From the sequence record MZ956761.1: 64,000 nt of DNA. One strand, given 5' to 3'. Numbering within the stretch: position 1 is the stretch's first letter; each line of letters opens with the position of its first letter. The position numbers were made by a program, and so were the translations under genes. A model generated the notes under the pieces. The model was not told the origin of the DNA. It did not search any database and saw only the letters and a program-made list of their open reading frames with translations. The stretch is from a phage. Of this stretch, positions 14,249-53,407 are shown in pieces.

Positions 14249-15933
14249 AGAATTTTAAACTAAACCGAGTTAGGTATCAAAATATAATGTCAGTAGGTGG
14301 AAATCCTATTGACATTCAACTAGATAAGGTTCAAAAAACTCTTATTACTGGACGAAATGGCGGTGGTAAGTCTACTATGTTAGAAGCCATCACATTTGGG
14401 CTTTTTGGCAAGCCATTTCGTGATGTAAAGAAAGGTCAATTAATAAACAGCACAAATAAGAAAGAACTTTTAGTTGAACTGTGGATGGAATATGATGAGA
14501 AAAAGTACTATATCAAAAGAGGACAAAAACCAAACGTTTTCGAAATCACCGTTAACGGTACACGTCTTAATGAATCTGCCAGCAGTAAAGATTTCCAAGC
14601 AGAATTTGAACAGCTTATCGGAATGTCATATGCCAGTTTCAAGCAGATTGTTGTCCTTGGTACAGCAGGGTATACCCCTTTCATGGGTTTGTCGACCCCT
14701 GCACGAAGAAAGCTTGTGGAAGACCTGCTCGAGGTAGGAACATTAGCTGAAATGGATAAGCTTAATAAAGCACTAATACGTGAATTAAATTCACAAAACC
14801 AAGTGCTTGATGTTAAAAAAGATAGTATTATCCAACAAATTAAAATATATAATGATAACGTTGAACGCCAGAAAAAATTAACTGGTGATAACCTTACTCG
14901 TCTACAGAATATGTATGATGATTTGGCAAAAGAAGCTAGAACGTTAAAATCGGAAATAGAAGAAGCTAATGAAAGATTAGTTAATATTGTTTTGGATGAA
15001 GACCCGACTGATGCATTTAATAAAATCGGTCAAGAAGCATTTTTAATTAAATCAAAAATTGACTCGTATAATAAAGTCATTAATATGTATCACGAAGGTG
15101 GATTATGTCCAACCTGTTTGTCACAATTAAGTTCCGGTGATAAAGTTGTTTCTAAAATTAAAGATAAAGTTTCTGAATGCACGCATTCGTTTGAACAGCT
15201 TTCAACNCNNCNNGNNNNNNNNNNAGTATNTCGTTNNTNANTNNNGNGATNNTNNNAANNNCNANNNGTNNGTTGCTTGCNNNTNNTNTGTNNCNNTNNA
15301 AANCANTNNNTNNNCACGACTGTAGATAAAGCTAAAANAGTTAAAGCAGCTATAGAANAAGCATCATCTGAGTTTATTGNCCATGCTGATNAAATNGCNC
15401 TGCTTNAAGANGAACTTGATAAAATTGTTAAGNCAAANACTAATTTNNTAATGGAAAAATNCCACNGAGGAATTTTGACTGATATGCTCAAAGATTCTGG
15501 TATTAANGGTGCTATTATTAAAAAGTACATTCCATTATTTAATAAGCAGATTAACCATTATCTTAAAATAATGGAAGCGGATTATGTGTTTACATTAGAT
15601 GAAGAATTTAATGAGACAATTAAATCCCGTGGTCGTGAAGATTTTAGTTATGCTTCATTCAGTCAAGGCGAAAAAGCACGAATTGATATTGCTCTTCTAT
15701 TTACTTGGCGTGATATTGCTGAAAAAGTTTCAGGTGTTAAAATAAACACACTAATTCTCGATGAAGTTTTTGATTCAGCAACTGATGTTGAAGGTGTAAA
15801 AGCTATTTCAACTATTTTAGATAGTTTAAAAAATACTAATGTTTTTGTTATTTCACATAGAGACCACGACCCGCAAGCATATGGTCAGCATCTTCAAATG
15901 AAGAAAGTTGGTCGATTTACTGTAATGGTTTAA
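14245..15933 (+). CDS. 46: recombination ATPase gp46 (Rad50/SbcC-like)
   Basis: 562 aa; Walker A GRNGGGKST; central part contains ambiguous bases. Confidence 0.85.
   Translation: MKNFKLNRVRYQNIMSVGGNPIDIQLDKVQKTLITGRNGGGKSTMLEAITFGLFGKPFRDVKKGQLINSTNKKELLVELWMEYDEKKYYIKRGQKPNVFEITVNGTRLNESASSKDFQAEFEQLIGMSYASFKQIVVLGTAGYTPFMGLSTPARRKLVEDLLEVGTLAEMDKLNKALIRELNSQNQVLDVKKDSIIQQIKIYNDNVERQKKLTGDNLTRLQNMYDDLAKEARTLKSEIEEANERLVNIVLDEDPTDAFNKIGQEAFLIKSKIDSYNKVINMYHEGGLCPTCLSQLSSGDKVVSKIKDKVSECTHSFEQLSXXXXXXXVXRXXXXXXXXXXXXXCLXXXCXXXXXXXXTTVDKAKXVKAAIEXASSEFIXHADXXXLLXXELDKIVKXXTNXXMEKXHXGILTDMLKDSGIXGAIIKKYIPLFNKQINHYLKIMEADYVFTLDEEFNETIKSRGREDFSYASFSQGEKARIDIALLFTWRDIAEKVSGVKINTLILDEVFDSATDVEGVKAISTILDSLKNTNVFVISHRDHDPQAYGQHLQMKKVGRFTVMV
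15207..15507. other. run of ambiguous bases (N) inside gene 46
   Basis: Scattered N characters in the sequence. Confidence 0.95.
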
Positions 15934-49003: not shown

Positions 49004-49561
49004 ATGCAGAAAACGAATCCGGGTTTGCAGAGACTATTTCAGATTCCGTCATTTACCCTATCGAACAGTGACTTGACTAGTGAAATGAAGGCCAAAATTG
49101 CTGATACTGCAAGATATTCTTTAAAGCAAAATCCAAATCAGGATAAGGCAGAAGTTATCGAAAGATGCCGTATCGCTGTGTACGCAGAGTTTTTTGTGGC
49201 AGATTGGCTGAGCGGATATGTCAATAAAGGCCAAGAAGATGTCGATGATCCGTACACATATGCATGGGATGTTTTAGCACATCCAAAATACTGCGGGCTT
49301 CGTGTAGAAGTTAAGACACATCAAACTGACTCACGTTGGATTTCGGTGACAACAGGATGCAGCGGAGAGTATCCATATGGTTCTGGAATAAATCTAGGGC
49401 CCATTCTAAATCATCAAGTCGCTGACTGTATAATTATATTCAACACTAAAGAAATTCATCCAGGTGTCATCCAGTACACTCCGAAGTTCATCGGTGACAG
49501 AGAAGACCTTCGTAAAGTTGTAAGAAAAAGCAACTACAACGGATGGTATCTTTCCATTTAA
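49004..49561 (+). CDS. denB: endonuclease IV (DenB) by size and position
   Basis: 185 aa, adjacent to rIIB as in T4. Confidence 0.6.
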   Translation: MQKTNPGLQRLFQIPSFTLSNSDLTSEMKAKIADTARYSLKQNPNQDKAEVIERCRIAVYAEFFVADWLSGYVNKGQEDVDDPYTYAWDVLAHPKYCGLRVEVKTHQTDSRWISVTTGCSGEYPYGSGINLGPILNHQVADCIIIFNTKEIHPGVIQYTPKFIGDREDLRKVVRKSNYNGWYLSI

Positions 49562-49577
49562 AAAATTTCACAAAATG

Positions 49578-49608
49578 GTTTACATACCACAAGGACCGTG
49601 GTACTATA
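49578..49608 (+). promoter_or_regulatory. T4-type early promoter with conserved leader
   Basis: GTTTAC 49578-49583, TACTAT 49603-49608; leader identical to 22401-22445. Confidence 0.6.
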
Positions 49609-49641
49609 CAACTATCAACTAATACGGATTTGGAGAATAAA

Positions 49642-49848
49642 ATGTTTACTACAGCTGAATTAAAACGAGCAAAAGCTAAGAAAGGGCAAGGGAAATATAA
49701 AGCTGAACTAGTTAAAGAACTTCAATTTGCTGAGGCTGAGTTGAATTCGATGATTATTCAAAATGCTCCAGAAACTGAAATTGCTCTTAAACGTATTGCG
49801 AATAAGTGTCTTCGTGATGCAATCGTTGATCTTTTAGCGGATTATTGA
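49642..49848 (+). CDS. hypothetical protein (68 aa)
   Basis: ATG 49642 with GGAG RBS. Confidence 0.45.
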   Translation: MFTTAELKRAKAKKGQGKYKAELVKELQFAEAELNSMIIQNAPETEIALKRIANKCLRDAIVDLLADY

Positions 49849-50117
49849 GTAAAATGAAATTTAAATTTTATTATGCTAAGCATAAAATAACTGATGAGTT
49901 TGTGTCAGTTGAATATTCTAGCGATGATGAAGGTATGATTTATACTCGCTTAGGATTATCGCATTGGGAGTCTGATCAGCCTTATTTTTCAACTCCTGAA
50001 GAAATTACACGCTTAGTTAATGGTCATATGAATGATCACTGGAATGTAATTCTTTCAGATAGTCTTAAAGCGGCTATTAATAGTAATGAAATGAAAATCG
50101 CTGAGATTGAACTATGA
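49845..50117 (+). CDS. hypothetical protein (90 aa)
   Basis: ATGA-coupled ORF. Confidence 0.45.
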   Translation: MSKMKFKFYYAKHKITDEFVSVEYSSDDEGMIYTRLGLSHWESDQPYFSTPEEITRLVNGHMNDHWNVILSDSLKAAINSNEMKIAEIEL

Positions 50118-50200
50118 GTTCATTATGGTGGTGTTTTGTTTGGTTAATTAGTATTCCATTAATTTGTTTAACATTTACTTTTGTAATGAGGTTATTATGA
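50114..50200 (+). CDS. candidate hydrophobic micro-protein (28 aa)
   Basis: ATGA-coupled; single TM-like segment; speculative. Confidence 0.25.
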   Translation: MSSLWWCFVWLISIPLICLTFTFVMRLL

Positions 50201-50295
50201 AAATTTTGAATTCTGTGCTTATTGCTTGTGCGTGGTGGGTTGCGCAAGTTTCAGCGGTAGTAGTTGGTATTCACATTTATTACGAATATTTTTAA
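50197..50295 (+). CDS. candidate hydrophobic micro-protein (32 aa)
   Basis: ATGA-coupled; TM-like; speculative. Confidence 0.25.
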   Translation: MKILNSVLIACAWWVAQVSAVVVGIHIYYEYF

Positions 50296-50302
50296 AAAAG
50301 TT

Positions 50303-50332
50303 GTTTACAAGACTGTTCCTCTGTGGTATTAT
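50303..50332 (+). promoter_or_regulatory. T4-type early promoter
   Basis: GTTTAC 50303-50308, TATTAT 50327-50332; first 16 nt identical to promoter 22379. Confidence 0.55.
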
Positions 50333-50360
50333 TACCCTATCAACTACGGAGGAACAGAAA

Positions 50361-50474
50361 ATGAAAAAGATTGTTAAAGCTATATGGAATGTAGTTATAA
50401 TACTAGTAGTTTTGAGTATATTCCCAATCGTTTTAATGATTGATGTATTAAACGCTTACTTTGGATTTATGTGA
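50361..50474 (+). CDS. candidate hydrophobic micro-protein (37 aa)
   Basis: ATG with GGAGG RBS; TM-like. Confidence 0.3.
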   Translation: MKKIVKAIWNVVIILVVLSIFPIVLMIDVLNAYFGFM

Positions 50475-50481
50475 GGAAAAT

Positions 50482-50679
50482 ATGAAGCGTAAACGCGGTG
50501 CTTTTACATTTATTGAATGGTTTTTCGATAATATTTTTCCAGCTTTATTCATTTTCATGCTGATTTTCGCCTTAGGTTCAGTTGTAGTTGGAATCTATTT
50601 GATGGCAGTTGTCGGAATGGACATTCATCAAAATGGCTTAAAATCTGTAGTTGAAACAATTTGGAATGGTGTAAAATGA
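50482..50679 (+). CDS. hypothetical membrane protein (65 aa)
   Basis: ATG 50482 with GAGGA RBS; two hydrophobic segments. Confidence 0.4.
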   Translation: MKRKRGAFTFIEWFFDNIFPALFIFMLIFALGSVVVGIYLMAVVGMDIHQNGLKSVVETIWNGVK

Positions 50680-50786
50680 TGAATTTGCTGAGTGGTTGGT
50701 TTTATATTCTCATGTTTTACATTGGTGCAAATTTCCCATATTGGATGGGATGGTCAACAACTGCATTCGGATTTTATACTCCTTGA
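50676..50786 (+). CDS. candidate hydrophobic micro-protein (36 aa)
   Basis: ATGA-coupled; speculative. Confidence 0.25.
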   Translation: MMNLLSGWFYILMFYIGANFPYWMGWSTTAFGFYTP

Positions 50787-50794
50787 GGTGAATT

Positions 50795-51010
50795 ATGAAA
50801 ATCTTTAAAGATGTAAAAGTTGGTGAAATTTTCTGTTTAGATAACGGTGATCAGTTAATTCGTATTTCACCTCTTAAGAGCACTAGCGAGAAACCGACAG
50901 TTAATGCTACTTTAGCAAATAACAGTAATGAACGTTTCTGTATTGAAAATGATACTGAAACTTATACCGTAGAAGAGTTTTGGAAATTGAGCGTCGACTG
51001 CGACGATTAA
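50795..51010 (+). CDS. hypothetical protein (71 aa)
   Basis: ORF with GAGG RBS. Confidence 0.45.
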   Translation: MKIFKDVKVGEIFCLDNGDQLIRISPLKSTSEKPTVNATLANNSNERFCIENDTETYTVEEFWKLSVDCDD

Positions 51011-51070
51011 TTTATCGGCCGTGTGTATTCATGCGGCCTTGGAGTAGAAAATAATTTAGAGGAAATTAAT

Positions 51071-51529
51071 ATGAAATATATGACTGTTACTGATCTGAAT
51101 GATGCAGGTGCTACTGTTATTGGTACAATCAAGGGTGGTGAGTGGTTTTTGGGAACTCCGCACAAAGACATTTTGTCTAAACCTGGATTTTACTTTTTAG
51201 TAAGTAAATTAGATGGTCGTCCATTTAGTAATCCATGTGTGTCTGCACGATTTTATGTAGGTAATCAGCGTTCTAAGCAAGGATTCAGTGCAGTTCTAAG
51301 TCATATTCGTCAACGTCGGTCTCAGCTTGCACGTACTATTGCAAATAACAATATGGTATACACGGTGTTTTATCTGCCTGCTTCTAAGATGAAACCTCTG
51401 ACGACGGGATTTGGAAAAGGTCAGTTAGCTTTGGCGTTTACTCGTAATCATCATTCTGAGTATCAAACACTTGAAGAAATGAACCGTATGTTGGCTGATA
51501 ACTTTAAATTTGTTTTGCAGGCATATTAA
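51071..51529 (+). CDS. ndd: nucleoid disruption protein Ndd (by size and position)
   Basis: 152 aa from ATG 51071; immediately upstream of stp. Confidence 0.55.
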
Positions 51530-51609
51530 TGAGTAATTTCCATAACGAACATGTGATGCAGTTCTATCGTAACAATCTTAAAACCAAAGGCGTCTTCGGA
51601 CGCCAGTGA
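51529..51609 (+). CDS. stp: Stp peptide (activator of host PrrC anticodon nuclease)
   Basis: 26-aa [29 protein letters not shown], as I recall T4 Stp. Confidence 0.75.
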
Positions 51610-51616
51610 GGAAAAT

Positions 51617-51772
51617 ATGAAATTTGTTCACGGTATAGCCTTTTTCTGTTGGTTCTTTTTATGCATCGGAACAGTAATAACTGGAGAAACTTCAGTATTT
51701 TTGCAAGCATCAGCTCAGGGCGTATTAGCGATTTTATCATTATTCGCGTACATTGGTTCTAAAAATAGTTGA
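51617..51772 (+). CDS. ac: small membrane protein Ac (by size and position)
   Basis: 51 aa, hydrophobic, GAGGA RBS. Confidence 0.5.
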   Translation: MKFVHGIAFFCWFFLCIGTVITGETSVFLQASAQGVLAILSLFAYIGSKNS

Positions 51773-51782
51773 GGAGAATATT

Positions 51783-51941
51783 ATGAATATCGCAAAATTA
51801 TTAGGAGTTATTTCATTTATTTGTTGGATAGTAGCATGTGTTTTAACTATCTGTATCGATGCTAGCAGTGTGTTTTCACAAGCTTTAGCNCAGGGTATGT
51901 GTNNATATTTNANNTTTGTGTTGTTATCTNCTAATGNTTAA
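51783..51941 (+). CDS. hypothetical membrane protein, 3' end obscured by N run
   Basis: ATG 51783 with GAGGAG RBS; stop position uncertain. Confidence 0.25.
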   Translation: MNIAKLLGVISFICWIVACVLTICIDASSVFSQALXQGMCXYXXFVLLSXNX

Positions 51942-52041
51942 GAAAATCTTNGGCTANTCANTANCCCNTGCTACTTTANTGGTAGCACTANANTANGGAG
52001 TAANGNTCNGANTAANTCAAGTCGTGCNTTTCATTTCNGAN
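51890..52041. other. run of ambiguous bases (N) upstream of gene 52
   Basis: Scattered N characters. Confidence 0.95.
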
Positions 52042-52078
52042 GTTATTATGGCACTACATTCACTAGTATGGTAAATTT

Positions 52079-53407
52079 ATGCAACTGAATAATCGCGATT
52101 TAAAAAGTATCATTGATAATGAAGCATTGGCTTATGCTATGTACACGGTTGAAAATCGTGCTATTCCAAATATGATTGATGGATTTAAGCCAGTTCAACG
52201 ATTTGTTATTGCTCGAGCTCTTGATTTGGCACGAGGAAATAAAGATAAGTTTCACAAACTCGCTTCTATCGCAGGTGGTGTAGCGGACCTTGGATATCAC
52301 CATGGCGAAAACTCTGCACAAGACGCAGGTGCTTTGATGGCTAACACTTGGAATAATAACTTTCCTCTGTTAGATGGTCAAGGAAACTTTGGTTCTCGTA
52401 CCGTTCAAAAAGCAGCAGCAAGTCGTTATATTTTTGCTCGTGTAAGTAAAAATTTCTATAACGTATATAAAGATACTGAATATGCTCCGGTACATCAAGA
52501 TAAAGAACACATTCCGCCTGCTTTTTATTTGCCTATTATTCCTACTGTTCTTCTTAATGGTGTTTCCGGTATTGCAACTGGTTATGCAACTTACATTCTT
52601 CCTCATAGTGTTTCTTCTGTCAAGAAAGCTGTACTGCAAGCTCTTCAAGGAAAGAAAGTAACTAAACCGAAGGTAGAATTCCCAGAATTTCGTGGTGAAG
52701 TCGTTGAAATTGATGGGCAGTATGAAATTCGTGGAACATATAAGTTTACTTCACGAACTCAAATGCATATCACTGAGATTCCATATAAGTATGATCGTGA
52801 AACTTATGTGAGTAAAATCTTAGACCCACTTGAAGATAAAGGCTTCATTACATGGGATGATGCTTGCGGTGAGCACGGTTTTGGATTCAAAGTTAAATTC
52901 CGTAAAGAATATTCTTTGAGCGATAATGAAGAAGAACGCCATGCAAAAATTATGAAAGACTTCGGGTTGATTGAGCGTCGTTCTCAGAATATTACCGTCA
53001 TTAATGAGAAAGGAAAGCTGCAAGTTTACGATAACGTAGTTGATTTAATTAAAGACTTCGTTGAAGTTCGTAAAACTTATGTCCAAAAACGAATTGATAA
53101 CAAAATTAAAGAAACTGAGTCAGCCTTTCGTTTAGCCTTTGCCAAGGCACATTTCATTAAGAAAGTAATTTCAGGTGAAATTGTTGTACAGGGTAAAACT
53201 CGTAAAGAACTGACCGAAGAACTTTCGAAAATCGATATGTATTCTTCTTATGTTGATAAACTAGTTGGAATGAATATTTTTCATATGACTTCCGACGAAG
53301 CAAAGAAACTTGCTGAAGAAGCTAAAGCTAAAAAAGAAGAAAACGAATATTGGAAAACTACTGATGTAGTTACCGAATACACCAAAGATTTAGAGGAAAT
53401 CAAATGA
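52079..53407 (+). CDS. 52: topoisomerase II medium subunit gp52 (GyrA-like)
   Basis: 442 aa; GyrA-type N-terminal region. Confidence 0.9.
   Translation: MQLNNRDLKSIIDNEALAYAMYTVENRAIPNMIDGFKPVQRFVIARALDLARGNKDKFHKLASIAGGVADLGYHHGENSAQDAGALMANTWNNNFPLLDGQGNFGSRTVQKAAASRYIFARVSKNFYNVYKDTEYAPVHQDKEHIPPAFYLPIIPTVLLNGVSGIATGYATYILPHSVSSVKKAVLQALQGKKVTKPKVEFPEFRGEVVEIDGQYEIRGTYKFTSRTQMHITEIPYKYDRETYVSKILDPLEDKGFITWDDACGEHGFGFKVKFRKEYSLSDNEEERHAKIMKDFGLIERRSQNITVINEKGKLQVYDNVVDLIKDFVEVRKTYVQKRIDNKIKETESAFRLAFAKAHFIKKVISGEIVVQGKTRKELTEELSKIDMYSSYVDKLVGMNIFHMTSDEAKKLAEEAKAKKEENEYWKTTDVVTEYTKDLEEIK

Follow-up and report, generated by a model that had tools for sequence, protein, structure and literature searches.

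The denB–ndd interval of Escherichia phage ADUt carries the ndd.x micro-genes of T4, probable early single-pass membrane accessory proteins

The window analysed here, 64,000 nucleotides of phage sequence record MZ956761.1, matched Escherichia phage ADUt (Tequatrovirus) with 100% identity. Its gene order is that of T4, denB-ndd.6...ndd.1-ndd, and the stretch flagged in a first-pass annotation corresponds to the T4 denB–ndd interval (Table 1). The rIIB gene lies upstream of the cluster, and ac, an extra ac paralogue and 52.1 lie downstream. The annotation had described positions 49642-51010 as a cluster of hydrophobic ORFs. All of these (28, 32, 37, 65 and 36 aa) were found on the plus strand as claimed, but the interval also holds three soluble ORFs of 68, 87 and 71 aa. 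The 36-aa ORF at 50676-50786 is likewise present; its first ATG (50676), however, is replaced by ATA in 7 of 21 relatives, and the conserved start of ndd.2 is therefore 50679, yielding 35 aa. Every ORF matched a separate PHROG family, and the 65-aa ORF matched the Pfam family DUF7248 as well.

Table 1 Features of the denB–ndd interval and its flanks (positions in the window)
Feature	Position	Strand	Description
denB (endonuclease IV), 5' flank	49004..49561	+	annotated in ADUt and T4
Early promoter P1	49578..49607	+	T4-type, GTTTACA-N17-GTGGTACTAT
ORF A	49642..49848	+	68 aa, soluble, charged; phrog_4535, E=4e-24
ORF B	49854..50117	+	87 aa, soluble, acidic; phrog_2390 ('RB51ncORF272c'), E=1e-46
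ndd.6 orthologue	50114..50200	+	28 aa, predicted single TM; phrog_8851, E=3.2e-17
ndd.5 orthologue	50197..50295	+	32 aa, predicted single TM; phrog_5011, E=3.6e-26
Early promoter P2, in the ndd.5/ndd.4 gap	50303..50332	+	T4-type, GTTTACA-N17-GTGGTATTAT
ndd.4 orthologue	50361..50474	+	37 aa, predicted single TM; phrog_3098, E=3.1e-21
65-aa DUF7248 gene	50482..50679	+	PF23906; phrog_2401, E=2e-29
ndd.2 orthologue	50679..50786	+	35 aa from the conserved start; phrog_4135, E=1.7e-24
ndd.1 orthologue	50795..51010	+	71 aa, soluble, acidic; phrog_2183, E=4e-38
ndd (nucleoid disruption protein), 3' flank	51071..51529	+	annotated in ADUt and T4; pN/pS 0.14

Position, order and lengths (28, 32, 37 and 36 aa) are shared with the T4 reference (NC_000866, T4p275-T4p270); the micro-proteins of the two phages are 92-100% identical in amino acid sequence and have their PHROG families in common. 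On this comparison the five hydrophobic ORFs are orthologues of T4 ndd.6, ndd.5, ndd.4, ndd.3+ndd.2a and ndd.2, and their identity as the T4 ndd.2-ndd.6 genes, together with their protein-coding status, is almost certain. The cluster, catalogued since the T4 genome project, is thus a rediscovery and no new element; the first-pass annotation had not recognised it as such. The two records nevertheless differ in three respects. ADUt has two additional soluble ORFs (A and B) 5' of ndd.6, which T4 is without. The ADUt record carries no annotation for ndd.6, whereas T4 has it (T4p275) at the same position. Finally, the 65-aa gene is intact in ADUt, whereas in the T4 reference record it is broken up into 'ndd.3', which is out of frame, and 'ndd.2a', which is truncated. 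That record has a 1-nt deletion after the ATG of this gene, and T2 has a stop at its codon 45. The T4 'ndd.3' and 'ndd.2a' are in reality one 65-aa DUF7248 gene.

Short hydrophobic frames are common in this DNA. The window contains 35 such ORFs, many of them off-frame within large genes, and the cluster could in principle consist of chance hydrophobic frames in AT-rich spacer DNA that encode nothing, a reading to which the failure of mass spectrometry to find any ndd.2-ndd.6 peptide in T4 also lends some weight. Four consecutive, non-overlapping hydrophobic ORFs within 566 nt represent about 13 times the background rate. As the sequence data stand, hydrophobic short ORFs are by themselves not above chance, and it is the comparative evidence that is decisive. 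The reading frames of the five hydrophobic ORFs are unbroken in 19-21 of 21 aligned relatives, and start codons and Shine-Dalgarno motifs are kept to the same extent. Low pN/pS values (0.07-0.14) are confined to the annotated frames; most off-frames give about 1-2.7 and contain stop codons. Individually, ndd.6 is intact in 20/21 relatives (7 synonymous and 3 nonsynonymous changes, pN/pS 0.10), ndd.5 in 21/21 (11 and 3, 0.07), ndd.2 in 21/21 (15 and 9, 0.14) and the 65-aa gene in 19/21 (0.13). Pooled over the four micro-ORFs, pN/pS is 0.145 (p=5e-12). The flanking denB gene (intact in 21/21) and ndd.1 gave 0.05 and 0.10, respectively. Moreover, the peptides are conserved across six genera despite saturated synonymous sites, and PHROG and Pfam families of their own exist. 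These comparative data effectively refute the chance-frame reading, which we regard as hardly credible, and mark the micro-ORFs as genuine protein-coding genes under purifying selection. Such genes had been postulated in the first-pass annotation, with frame conservation and the balance of synonymous and nonsynonymous change named as the check; both bear the proposal out, and the corresponding T4 transcripts are early.

One gene deviates from this pattern. The 37 codons of ndd.4 are intact in 21/21 relatives and between-genus dN/dS is 0.08-0.21; within Tequatrovirus, however, ndd.4 shows an unusual surplus of nonsynonymous over synonymous changes, which does not fit simple purifying selection. 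An RNA-level cause for its low synonymous diversity was considered and dropped as unsupported (no Rfam family, folding z-score −0.8).

The hydropathy of the products is pronounced, with best 19-residue Kyte-Doolittle means of 2.2-3.1 for ndd.6, ndd.5, ndd.4 and the 65-aa protein and of 1.2 for ndd.2. Hydropathy, charge placement and an AlphaFold (AF2) model of the 65-aa protein were used to assign topology, and each product is very probably a single-pass inner-membrane micro-protein that would be too small for catalysis. By the positive-inside rule, ndd.5, ndd.4 and the 65-aa protein are predicted to be N-in. Profile matches are full-length for ndd.6 (residues 1-28 on phrog_8851 1-28/28), ndd.5 (phrog_5011 1-32/32) and ndd.4 (phrog_3098 1-37/37). 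The ndd.6 product is predicted to be N-out/C-in from its single R26, and has homologues in 662 phage records, of which about 160 come from other genera and are around 50% identical. Homologues of ndd.5 (491 records, all more than 90% identical) are confined to Tequatrovirus. Its residues L8-I9-A10-C11 resemble the lipobox L-[ASTVI]-[GAS]-C; the presumptive signal peptide has just 10 aa (typically about 15-25), and the 22-aa 'mature' part, soluble in a lipoprotein, is itself TM-like. An 'outer membrane protein' label found on ndd.5 was traced to the bacterial lipoprotein pattern. In ndd.4, K2, K3 and K6 account for the predicted N-in orientation, and the motif KK.LKAIWN-TM-IFP.V.MID, carried by family peptides of 37-40 aa, holds in six genera together with the denB-ndd synteny. 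PF26889 (Phage_T4_Y16N) is precomputed on ndd.4 homologues; our local Pfam copy gave no score for ndd.4 itself. The ndd.2 product has zero charged residues and is 34% aromatic (F/W/Y); Marfavirus phages of Klebsiella and contig L028 encode homologues that are about 46-49% identical to it.

The 65-aa protein scored 70.5 bits against PF23906 (cut-off 27) over residues 13-63. Its layout comprises a KRKR N-terminus, one TM segment (~18-46) and a conserved C-terminal helix, NGLKSVVETIWNG. Within the latter, the motif GLKSVVE.IWNG is invariant in our alignment (A1) and present in the family representatives. The protein had been taken for a two-TM protein. It contains one uncharged hydrophobic stretch of 29 residues, and the AF2 model, built on a shallow 6-sequence alignment, shows a single continuous helix over residues 19-64 (mean pLDDT 79; 87-94 over residues 11-40). 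A homologue search returned 8 clusters, and the DUF7248 representatives (n=31, shortest homologues 51 aa) are small and single-TM except for two tape-measure-like matches. The length of the stretch, the continuous helix and the single TM throughout the family therefore speak against a hairpin, and the two-TM description is abandoned. The conserved helix of the protein, amphipathic in character, would face the periplasm. The likeness between the C-terminal motif and the WNGIK repeats of the tape-measure-like proteins was judged to be one of amphipathic repeats, with no functional evidence behind it.

ORF A (GRAVY −0.29) occurs in the window and in 6 of 20 aligned relatives, T2 among them, and not in T4. 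ORF B exists in at least three divergent alleles among the relatives, is frameshifted in phage Killian and missing from T2, and has been deleted from T4 with its last ~33 nt remaining. The TGA of ORF B overlaps the ATG of ndd.6.

Scanning the whole window for the early-promoter motif GTTTAC-N15-19-GGTAYWAT gave 9 matches against 0.02 expected, and two of these, P1 and P2, lie in the denB-ndd interval. Both are conserved in 21/21 relatives and were also picked up by a sigma-70 scan. P2 shares its motif class with the PeSL promoters described for the T4/PST pair (TTTACW-N17-TAYWAT), and the ndd.4/.5 cassette is a published case of PeSL-mediated shuffling (PMC4122927). The genes form two short polycistronic units, P1 serving A-B-ndd.6-ndd.5 and P2 serving ndd.4-65aa-ndd.2-ndd.1. 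This arrangement qualifies the earlier description of four translationally coupled micro-ORFs joined by intact ATGA/ATG junctions and ribosome-binding sites. The junctions and ribosome-binding sites that exist are indeed conserved, including the ATGA overlap of ndd.5 with ndd.6 and the overlap of the ndd.2 start with the stop of the 65-aa gene, but overlaps (of the ATGA/TGATG type) occur only at ORF B/ndd.6, ndd.6/ndd.5 and 65aa/ndd.2. Gaps precede the other genes: 7-8 nt before the 65-aa gene and ndd.1, and 65 nt, carrying the early promoter, before ndd.4, so that coupling of all four does not hold.

In T4 transcriptomics the ndd.2-ndd.6 transcripts are classed as 'early'. In T4 proteomics, ndd.1 protein was seen early and all ndd.2-ndd.6 products are listed as 'NA', none having been detected by MS; this is weak evidence, since peptides so small and hydrophobic are hard to catch by MS. 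The Shine-Dalgarno sequence of ndd.4 is GGAGG. GGAG in early mRNAs is cleaved by RegB (PMC1702504), and the GGAG in the Shine-Dalgarno sites of ndd.4 and ORF A makes these likely targets. With cleavage there, the ndd.4 and ORF A products would be made only briefly, in a burst early in infection.

The set and order of the micro-ORFs vary by genus, and ndd.4 and DUF7248 are the members that recur between denB and ndd. Homologues of ndd.4 were found at this position in Gaprivervirus, Dhakavirus, Mosugukvirus, Karamvirus, Marfavirus and one metagenome contig. Phage PM2 has ndd.4 alone, JS10 is without DUF7248, and in L028 the order is shuffled. An obligate hetero-oligomer of all five peptides, considered on account of the translational coupling, was rejected as a general model in view of this variation; pairwise complexes among the micro-proteins may form. 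None of the window's other small ORFs proved to be a paralogue of the micro-genes. In T4, CRISPRi-ART classed all of ndd.2-ndd.6 as 'Not Fit' and transposon insertion (HIDEN-SEQ) as 'Non-essential', and neither knock-down nor insertion had a fitness effect on E. coli K-12 in these genome-wide screens. The hits reported for the HIDEN-SEQ challenges (RexAB, RnlAB, CBASS, DarTG1/2, minimal medium) include no ndd.2-ndd.6 gene. The sa-delta-9 deletion, which removes the whole region, still gave a yield of 50% of wild type (PMC6071114). The micro-genes are dispensable on laboratory E. coli.

Searches with the micro-proteins in Pfam, NCBIfam, PADLOC and PDB sequences returned no meaningful functional match, and no similarity to characterised families of small membrane regulators, toxins, holins or defence/anti-defence proteins was seen. 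Among the PADLOC models of defence components the one match, ndd.4 with KwaA (13.8 bits, E=0.0085, over one TM segment), was taken as compositional. Although DUF7248 (PF23906) and Phage_T4_Y16N (PF26889) have members in the cluster, both are families without an assigned function, and membership therefore gives no mechanism. Family, structure and literature sources assign no function to the ndd.x genes or DUF7248, Kutter 2018 being the sole relevant paper; the first-pass annotation had suggested that such proteins can modulate host transporters or exclusion, which is a conjecture. A holin, antiholin or spanin role was rejected on the early promoters and early T4 transcripts, the lack of a charged C-terminal tail, and neighbours (denB and ndd) that are not lysis genes.

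The bacterial proteins AcrZ, MgrB, MgtS, KdpF, CydX and SgrT are single-TM proteins of 30-50 aa that bind larger proteins within the membrane. The micro-proteins share their single-TM, non-catalytic size, and it is this analogy alone that provides the working model; they show no sequence similarity to AcrZ/MgrB-type regulators (Pfam/NCBIfam, E<=1), and the micro-genes are phage-borne and immediate-early. In the proposed mechanism the micro-proteins would insert into the cytoplasmic membrane in the first minutes of infection, where each would singly bind a host or prophage envelope protein by helix-helix packing or act on the bilayer, and the envelope would thereby be conditioned for takeover. 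They would be niche-specific accessory factors in host range or counter-defence and not core functions. Binding and modulation at the envelope is a tentative suggestion, drawn from the analogy. The explanation as a whole, namely that these are the T4 ndd.x micro-genes and encode early single-pass membrane accessory proteins, is the one we favour and consider probable.

Three more specific roles were weighed against it. The first starts from the stimulation of host phosphatidylglycerol/phospholipid synthesis after T4 infection, which one or several of the micro-proteins might trigger via the inner-membrane lipid machinery or its sensing. The sa-delta-9 deletion (52.1, ac, stp, ndd, ndd.1-ndd.6 and denB removed) abolishes this stimulation, a protein made within 5 min is needed for it, and several genes of the region, as the authors point out, have predicted membrane proteins as products (PMC6071114), all of which suits micro-genes that are early and predicted to be membrane-targeted. 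Since the deletion spans 13 genes, ac, 52.1 and ndd included, the lipid phenotype is unmapped; a dCTPase/EndoIV/Alc mutant is also without stimulation, pointing to denB or alc and not to the micro-genes (PMC6071114). With no similarity to lipid-metabolism proteins in Pfam or NCBIfam either, we consider this role distinctly unlikely.

T4 exclusion factors are small early envelope proteins, and here too early small membrane proteins adjoin envelope-related genes. Like proteins of the Imm/Sp/Ac type, the micro-proteins might accordingly protect the envelope, sealing or altering the membrane so as to keep out toxic compounds and the DNA of secondary phages and to resist lysis from without. T4 Ac, gp52.1 and Imm are early, small, hydrophobic and non-essential like the micro-proteins, and Ac and 52.1 lie within the same deletable rIIB-52 region, yet these two have no detectable homology to the micro-proteins in the window, and no relation to Imm/Sp/Ac-type proteins emerged from profile and window searches. 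Ac (acridine resistance) and Imm (exclusion) have genetic phenotypes, whereas the ndd.x genes have none, and imm and sp already explain T4 exclusion genetically. A role of this type is improbable.

In size, hydrophobicity and single TM helix the micro-proteins also resemble the type I toxins Hok, TisB, Ibs and Ldr, and many small immediate-early T4 genes of deletable regions are host-lethal if cloned (Kutter et al., PMC6071114). Toxin-like peptides could add to host shut-off by depolarising the inner membrane or making it permeable. The micro-proteins gave no toxin-family match in Pfam or NCBIfam at E<=1, and Rfam returned no family over 49500-51700 (the best hit, potC, was sub-threshold with 20.5 bits vs 44) and no antisense RNA locus was evident. 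T4, moreover, depends on the membrane staying energised, both for the entry of its DNA and for lysis inhibition, and knock-down or insertion leaves fitness unchanged. Host-lethal peptides are as improbable here as an exclusion function.

In summary, the gene model of this interval is corrected to one 65-aa single-TM DUF7248 gene (not ndd.3 and ndd.2a), a 35-aa ndd.2 and a 37-aa ndd.4. The genes belong to phage 'dark matter', conserved in about 500 sequenced Tequatroviruses, with two of them recurring in at least six T4-like genera. The place to look for their action is narrowed to the inner membrane, the first minutes of infection and non-laboratory hosts. It is an unlikely but conceivable extension that ndd.4 and DUF7248, and perhaps others, are host-range or counter-defence determinants directed against membrane-embedded abortive-infection or exclusion systems of natural hosts, or triggers of the phospholipid switch. 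If so, the excess of amino-acid over silent changes seen within the genus in the ndd.4 TM helix would mirror an arms race fought where two helices pack against each other.

The segment 49000-51600 matched 566 of 50,697 phage records by megablast, with 100% identity along the entire query to Escherichia phage ADUt (OQ466432.1, Tequatrovirus) and 95.6% identity over 83% of the query to T4. The annotations of ADUt and T4 give the gene order rIIB-denB.1-denB-[ndd.6...ndd.1]-ndd-stp-ac-52.1-52, oriented on the + strand in the window. Between denB and ndd, eight ORFs follow in succession, each with a separate PHROG match (E 1e-17 to 1e-46); the 65-aa ORF also scored 70.5 bits with Pfam DUF7248 (cut-off 27). 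The micro-ORFs and lengths listed in the first-pass annotation were confirmed from the sequence and the ORF list. These are ndd.6, ndd.5, ndd.4, ndd.3 plus ndd.2a (the 65-aa gene) and ndd.2, all known from T4. The finding is a rediscovery, the ndd.2-ndd.6 family having long been annotated with its own PHROG and Pfam entries, and the gain over existing annotation lies in some useful gene-model corrections.

Features of the denB-ndd region and other positions in the window, with frame conservation and substitution counts from 21 aligned sequences
Feature	Coordinates	Strand	Product	Intact frame or motif	Syn/nonsyn	pN/pS
Off-frame hydrophobic ORFs	409-774
denB	49004-49561	+			85/15	0.05
Mosaic hot spot	49578-50117
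Early promoter P1, before ORF A	49578-49607			21/21
ORF A	49642-49848	+	68 aa
ORF B	49854-50117	+	87 aa
ndd.6	50114-50200	+	28 aa	20/21	7/3	0.10
ndd.5	50197-50295	+	32 aa	21/21	11/3	0.07
Early promoter P2, before ndd.4	50303-50332			21/21
ndd.4	50361-50474	+	37 aa	21/21
Low-diversity tract	50361-50550
65-aa gene	50482-50679	+	65 aa	19/21	25/12	0.13
ndd.2	50676/50679-50786	+	36/35 aa	21/21	15/9	0.14
ndd.1	50795-51010	+	71 aa
ndd	51071-51529	+			74/36	0.14
stp	51529-51609	+	26 aa
Extra Ac paralogue	51617-51772	+	51 aa
ac	51783-51941	+
52.1	51934-52074	+

In the 64-kb window, 35 ATG-initiated ORFs between 25 and 70 aa long have a TM-like segment, and several of them lie off-frame inside large genes, as would be expected if the micro-ORFs were non-coding chance ORFs. 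Three successive hydrophobic ORFs lying off-frame within a 350-aa gene (409-774) provide a useful negative control for their chance production in an AT-rich genome. Hydrophobicity of short ORFs by itself is thus no more than chance, and frame conservation and substitutions were therefore analyzed in an alignment of the window with 20 related loci, counting distinct variants relative to the consensus. The micro-ORF frames were intact in 19-21 of the 21 sequences at pN/pS values of 0.07-0.14, on par with denB and ndd; the four micro-ORFs pooled gave 0.145 (p=5e-12). Alternative frames showed pN/pS of about 1-2.7 plus stop codons in most. Start codons, overlap junctions and Shine-Dalgarno motifs were kept across the aligned relatives, in line with the intact ribosome-binding sites proposed earlier. 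The test named in advance was thereby passed; the chance-ORF explanation is effectively refuted and the micro-ORFs are real genes.

ndd.4 was uninformative for coding within Tequatrovirus, with 1 synonymous and 5 nonsynonymous variants among the 21 sequences (1:5 versus 58:27, Fisher test, p=0.019). Between genera its dN/dS was 0.08-0.21 with dS saturated. Together with the 5' end of the 65-aa gene it forms a low-diversity tract in Tequatrovirus. At the DNA level ndd.4 varies unusually little there, but most of the differences it has change an amino acid. Its DNA is more conserved than its protein, whereas the opposite holds for ndd.2. The region gave no RNA family and no stable structure that would explain this pattern. 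The simplest reading of these counts would be a recent recombinational cassette sweep, followed by diversification at V5, V16, S19 and A32.

Numbers of records by identity to the window (about 495 records; the ndd.2 segment is equally long)
Identity	ndd.4 DNA	ndd.4 protein	ndd.2 DNA	ndd.2 protein
>=99%	223	138	23	260
95-99%	270	108	255	74
90-95%	2	247	182	149

Several gene models could be corrected. In the T4 reference NC_000866 (T4 locus L002, 1837-2033), the 65-aa gene has lost 1 nt directly behind its ATG, which makes 'ndd.3' an off-frame product and 'ndd.2a' an internal-start fragment; the CRISPRi-ART supplement lists T4 'ndd.3' as a PHROG singleton (PMC11879866). The frame is intact in another T4 record and in most relatives. 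T2 PV648363 (locus L010, 1548-1745) has a nonsense codon at position 45, so that two classical laboratory strains carry lesions in this gene. The 36-aa ORF of the first-pass annotation is a real frame, but its first ATG is ATA in 7/21 relatives; the conserved start is therefore 50679, which yields 35 aa and forms a TGATG or TAATG overlap with the preceding stop codon. The same annotation described the micro-ORFs as translationally coupled. Overlaps are present at ndd.6/ndd.5 and 65-aa/ndd.2, and B/ndd.6 is the only further one; ndd.4 follows a 65-nt gap. Both ndd.6 and stp are missing from the public ADUt annotation; the stp product is identical to T4 Stp, the activator of host PrrC. An extra paralogue of the acridine-resistance protein Ac (41% identity) precedes T4-type ac and 52.1 in ADUt, which carries the series of small TM proteins on past ndd. 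The window contains 98 scattered N characters (73 in 15207-15507, 25 in 51890-52041), which give X residues in translated ac and 52.1; compared over 51880-52080, OQ466432.1 has ordinary bases there.

Nine copies of the T4 early-promoter motif GTTTAC-N15-19-GGTAYWAT are present in the window, where 0.02 would be expected; two of them, the conserved P1 and P2, define two early units. In T4, transcripts of ndd.2, 2a, 3, 4, 5 and 6 were classed as 'early' and their proteins went undetected by proteomics, which did pick up the ndd.1 and Ndd products at an early stage (Wolfram-Schauerte 2022, PMC9697503 Table S2). The ribosome-binding sites of ndd.4 and ORF A contain GGAG, the motif cleaved by RegB (PMC1702504), which suggests that their synthesis may be a short burst.

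Distribution was followed by tblastn of each peptide against the phage collection. ndd.5 (491 records, >90% identity throughout) was found only in Tequatrovirus. ndd.6 gave 662 records, about 160 at ~50% identity from other coliphage genera; ndd.4 gave 601, including Gaprivervirus, Dhakavirus, Mosugukvirus and Karamvirus at 43-61%; ndd.2 gave 519, among them Klebsiella Marfavirus phages at ~46-49%. The 65-aa protein gave 498 plus Aeromonas phage 65.2 at 33%, where the unannotated homologue of 87 aa (locus L014, 2486-2749, +) lies under an annotated opposite-strand ORF. VR7, JS10, PM2, P545, EnA02 and a metagenomic contig carry micro-genes in varying set and order, but invariably between denB and ndd: ndd.4 is the sole micro-gene in PM2, and the contig (L028) reads denB-ndd.4-B-ndd.2-like-DUF7248-ndd. 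The mosaic hot spot directly follows P1. ORF A occurs in the window and in 6 of the 20 loci aligned with it; for ORF B there are three or more divergent alleles, a frameshift in phage Killian and, in T4, a deletion sparing the last ~33 nt. Comeau et al. 2014 cited 'ndd.4/.5' to illustrate how cassettes are exchanged via promoter-stem-loop (PeSL) repeats (PMC4122927), whose promoter consensus TTTACW-N17-TAYWAT is also seen at the window's micro-gene promoters. The mosaic tract is consistent with this shuffling, and the variation in set and order together with the published exchange indicates that the peptides behave as separable cassettes. An obligate complex of all five peptides was rejected as a general model on these grounds.

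By hydropathy, the A, B and ndd.1 products are charged and soluble. Those of ndd.6, ndd.5 and ndd.4 are barely more than one TM helix apiece (best 19-residue KD means 2.2-3.1), and that of ndd.2 is 34% aromatic with zero charged residues. ndd.5 contains a lipobox-like L-I-A-C11, probably the origin of its T4-derived 'outer membrane protein' label; a presumptive signal peptide of just 10 aa makes lipidation doubtful. The 65-aa protein, previously read as two-TM, has a KRKR N-terminus, one uncharged 29-residue stretch (18-46) and an amphipathic tail, and its AF2 model (mean pLDDT 79) has a helix 5-17, a Pro20 kink and a continuous helix 19-64; it is not a two-TM protein. A profile search of 1.8 billion representatives returned 31 proteins, all of 25-81 aa except two tape-measure-like matches; the ten inspected share a basic N-terminus, one TM and [EQ].GLKS[VI][VI]E.IW.G. 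The long tape-measure-like proteins P0016 (820 aa) and P0028 (976 aa) contain hendecad 'WNGIK' repeats, 9-10 in tandem, that match the LKSVVETIWNG motif conserved at the DUF7248 C-terminus, probably a common amphipathic-helix repeat and not functional homology. A natural fusion protein, Shigella phage Sf25 gp120 (P0007), joins the N-terminus and TM of ndd.4 in frame to the DUF7248 C-terminal half and bears both PF26889 and PF23906.

No functional match for the micro-proteins was found in Pfam, NCBIfam, PADLOC or PDB, and the literature open to searching contained no mention of ndd.2a or DUF7248. Experiments on T4 bear on function negatively or indirectly. A switch of lipid synthesis is one competing explanation: the T4 deletion sa-delta-9 (52.1 through denB) abolished post-infection stimulation of phosphatidylglycerol synthesis and halved the burst, but it spans 13 genes (PMC6071114). 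Imm/Sp-like protection of the envelope and type-I-toxin-like depolarisation are two others. CRISPRi-ART knock-down of T4 ndd.1-ndd.6 was scored 'Not Fit' (PMC11879866). In HIDEN-SEQ, transposon insertions in the T4 ndd.x micro-genes were 'Non-essential', and the micro-genes are not among its reported hits (RexAB, RnlAB, CBASS, DarTG1/2, minimal medium). Strong purifying selection in nature combined with laboratory dispensability marks the micro-genes as accessory genes. In the preferred explanation they probably encode immediate-early, single-pass inner-membrane micro-proteins. We tentatively propose, at somewhat less than even chances, that these would bind envelope components of the host or a prophage, within the membrane or at its interface, each acting on its own.
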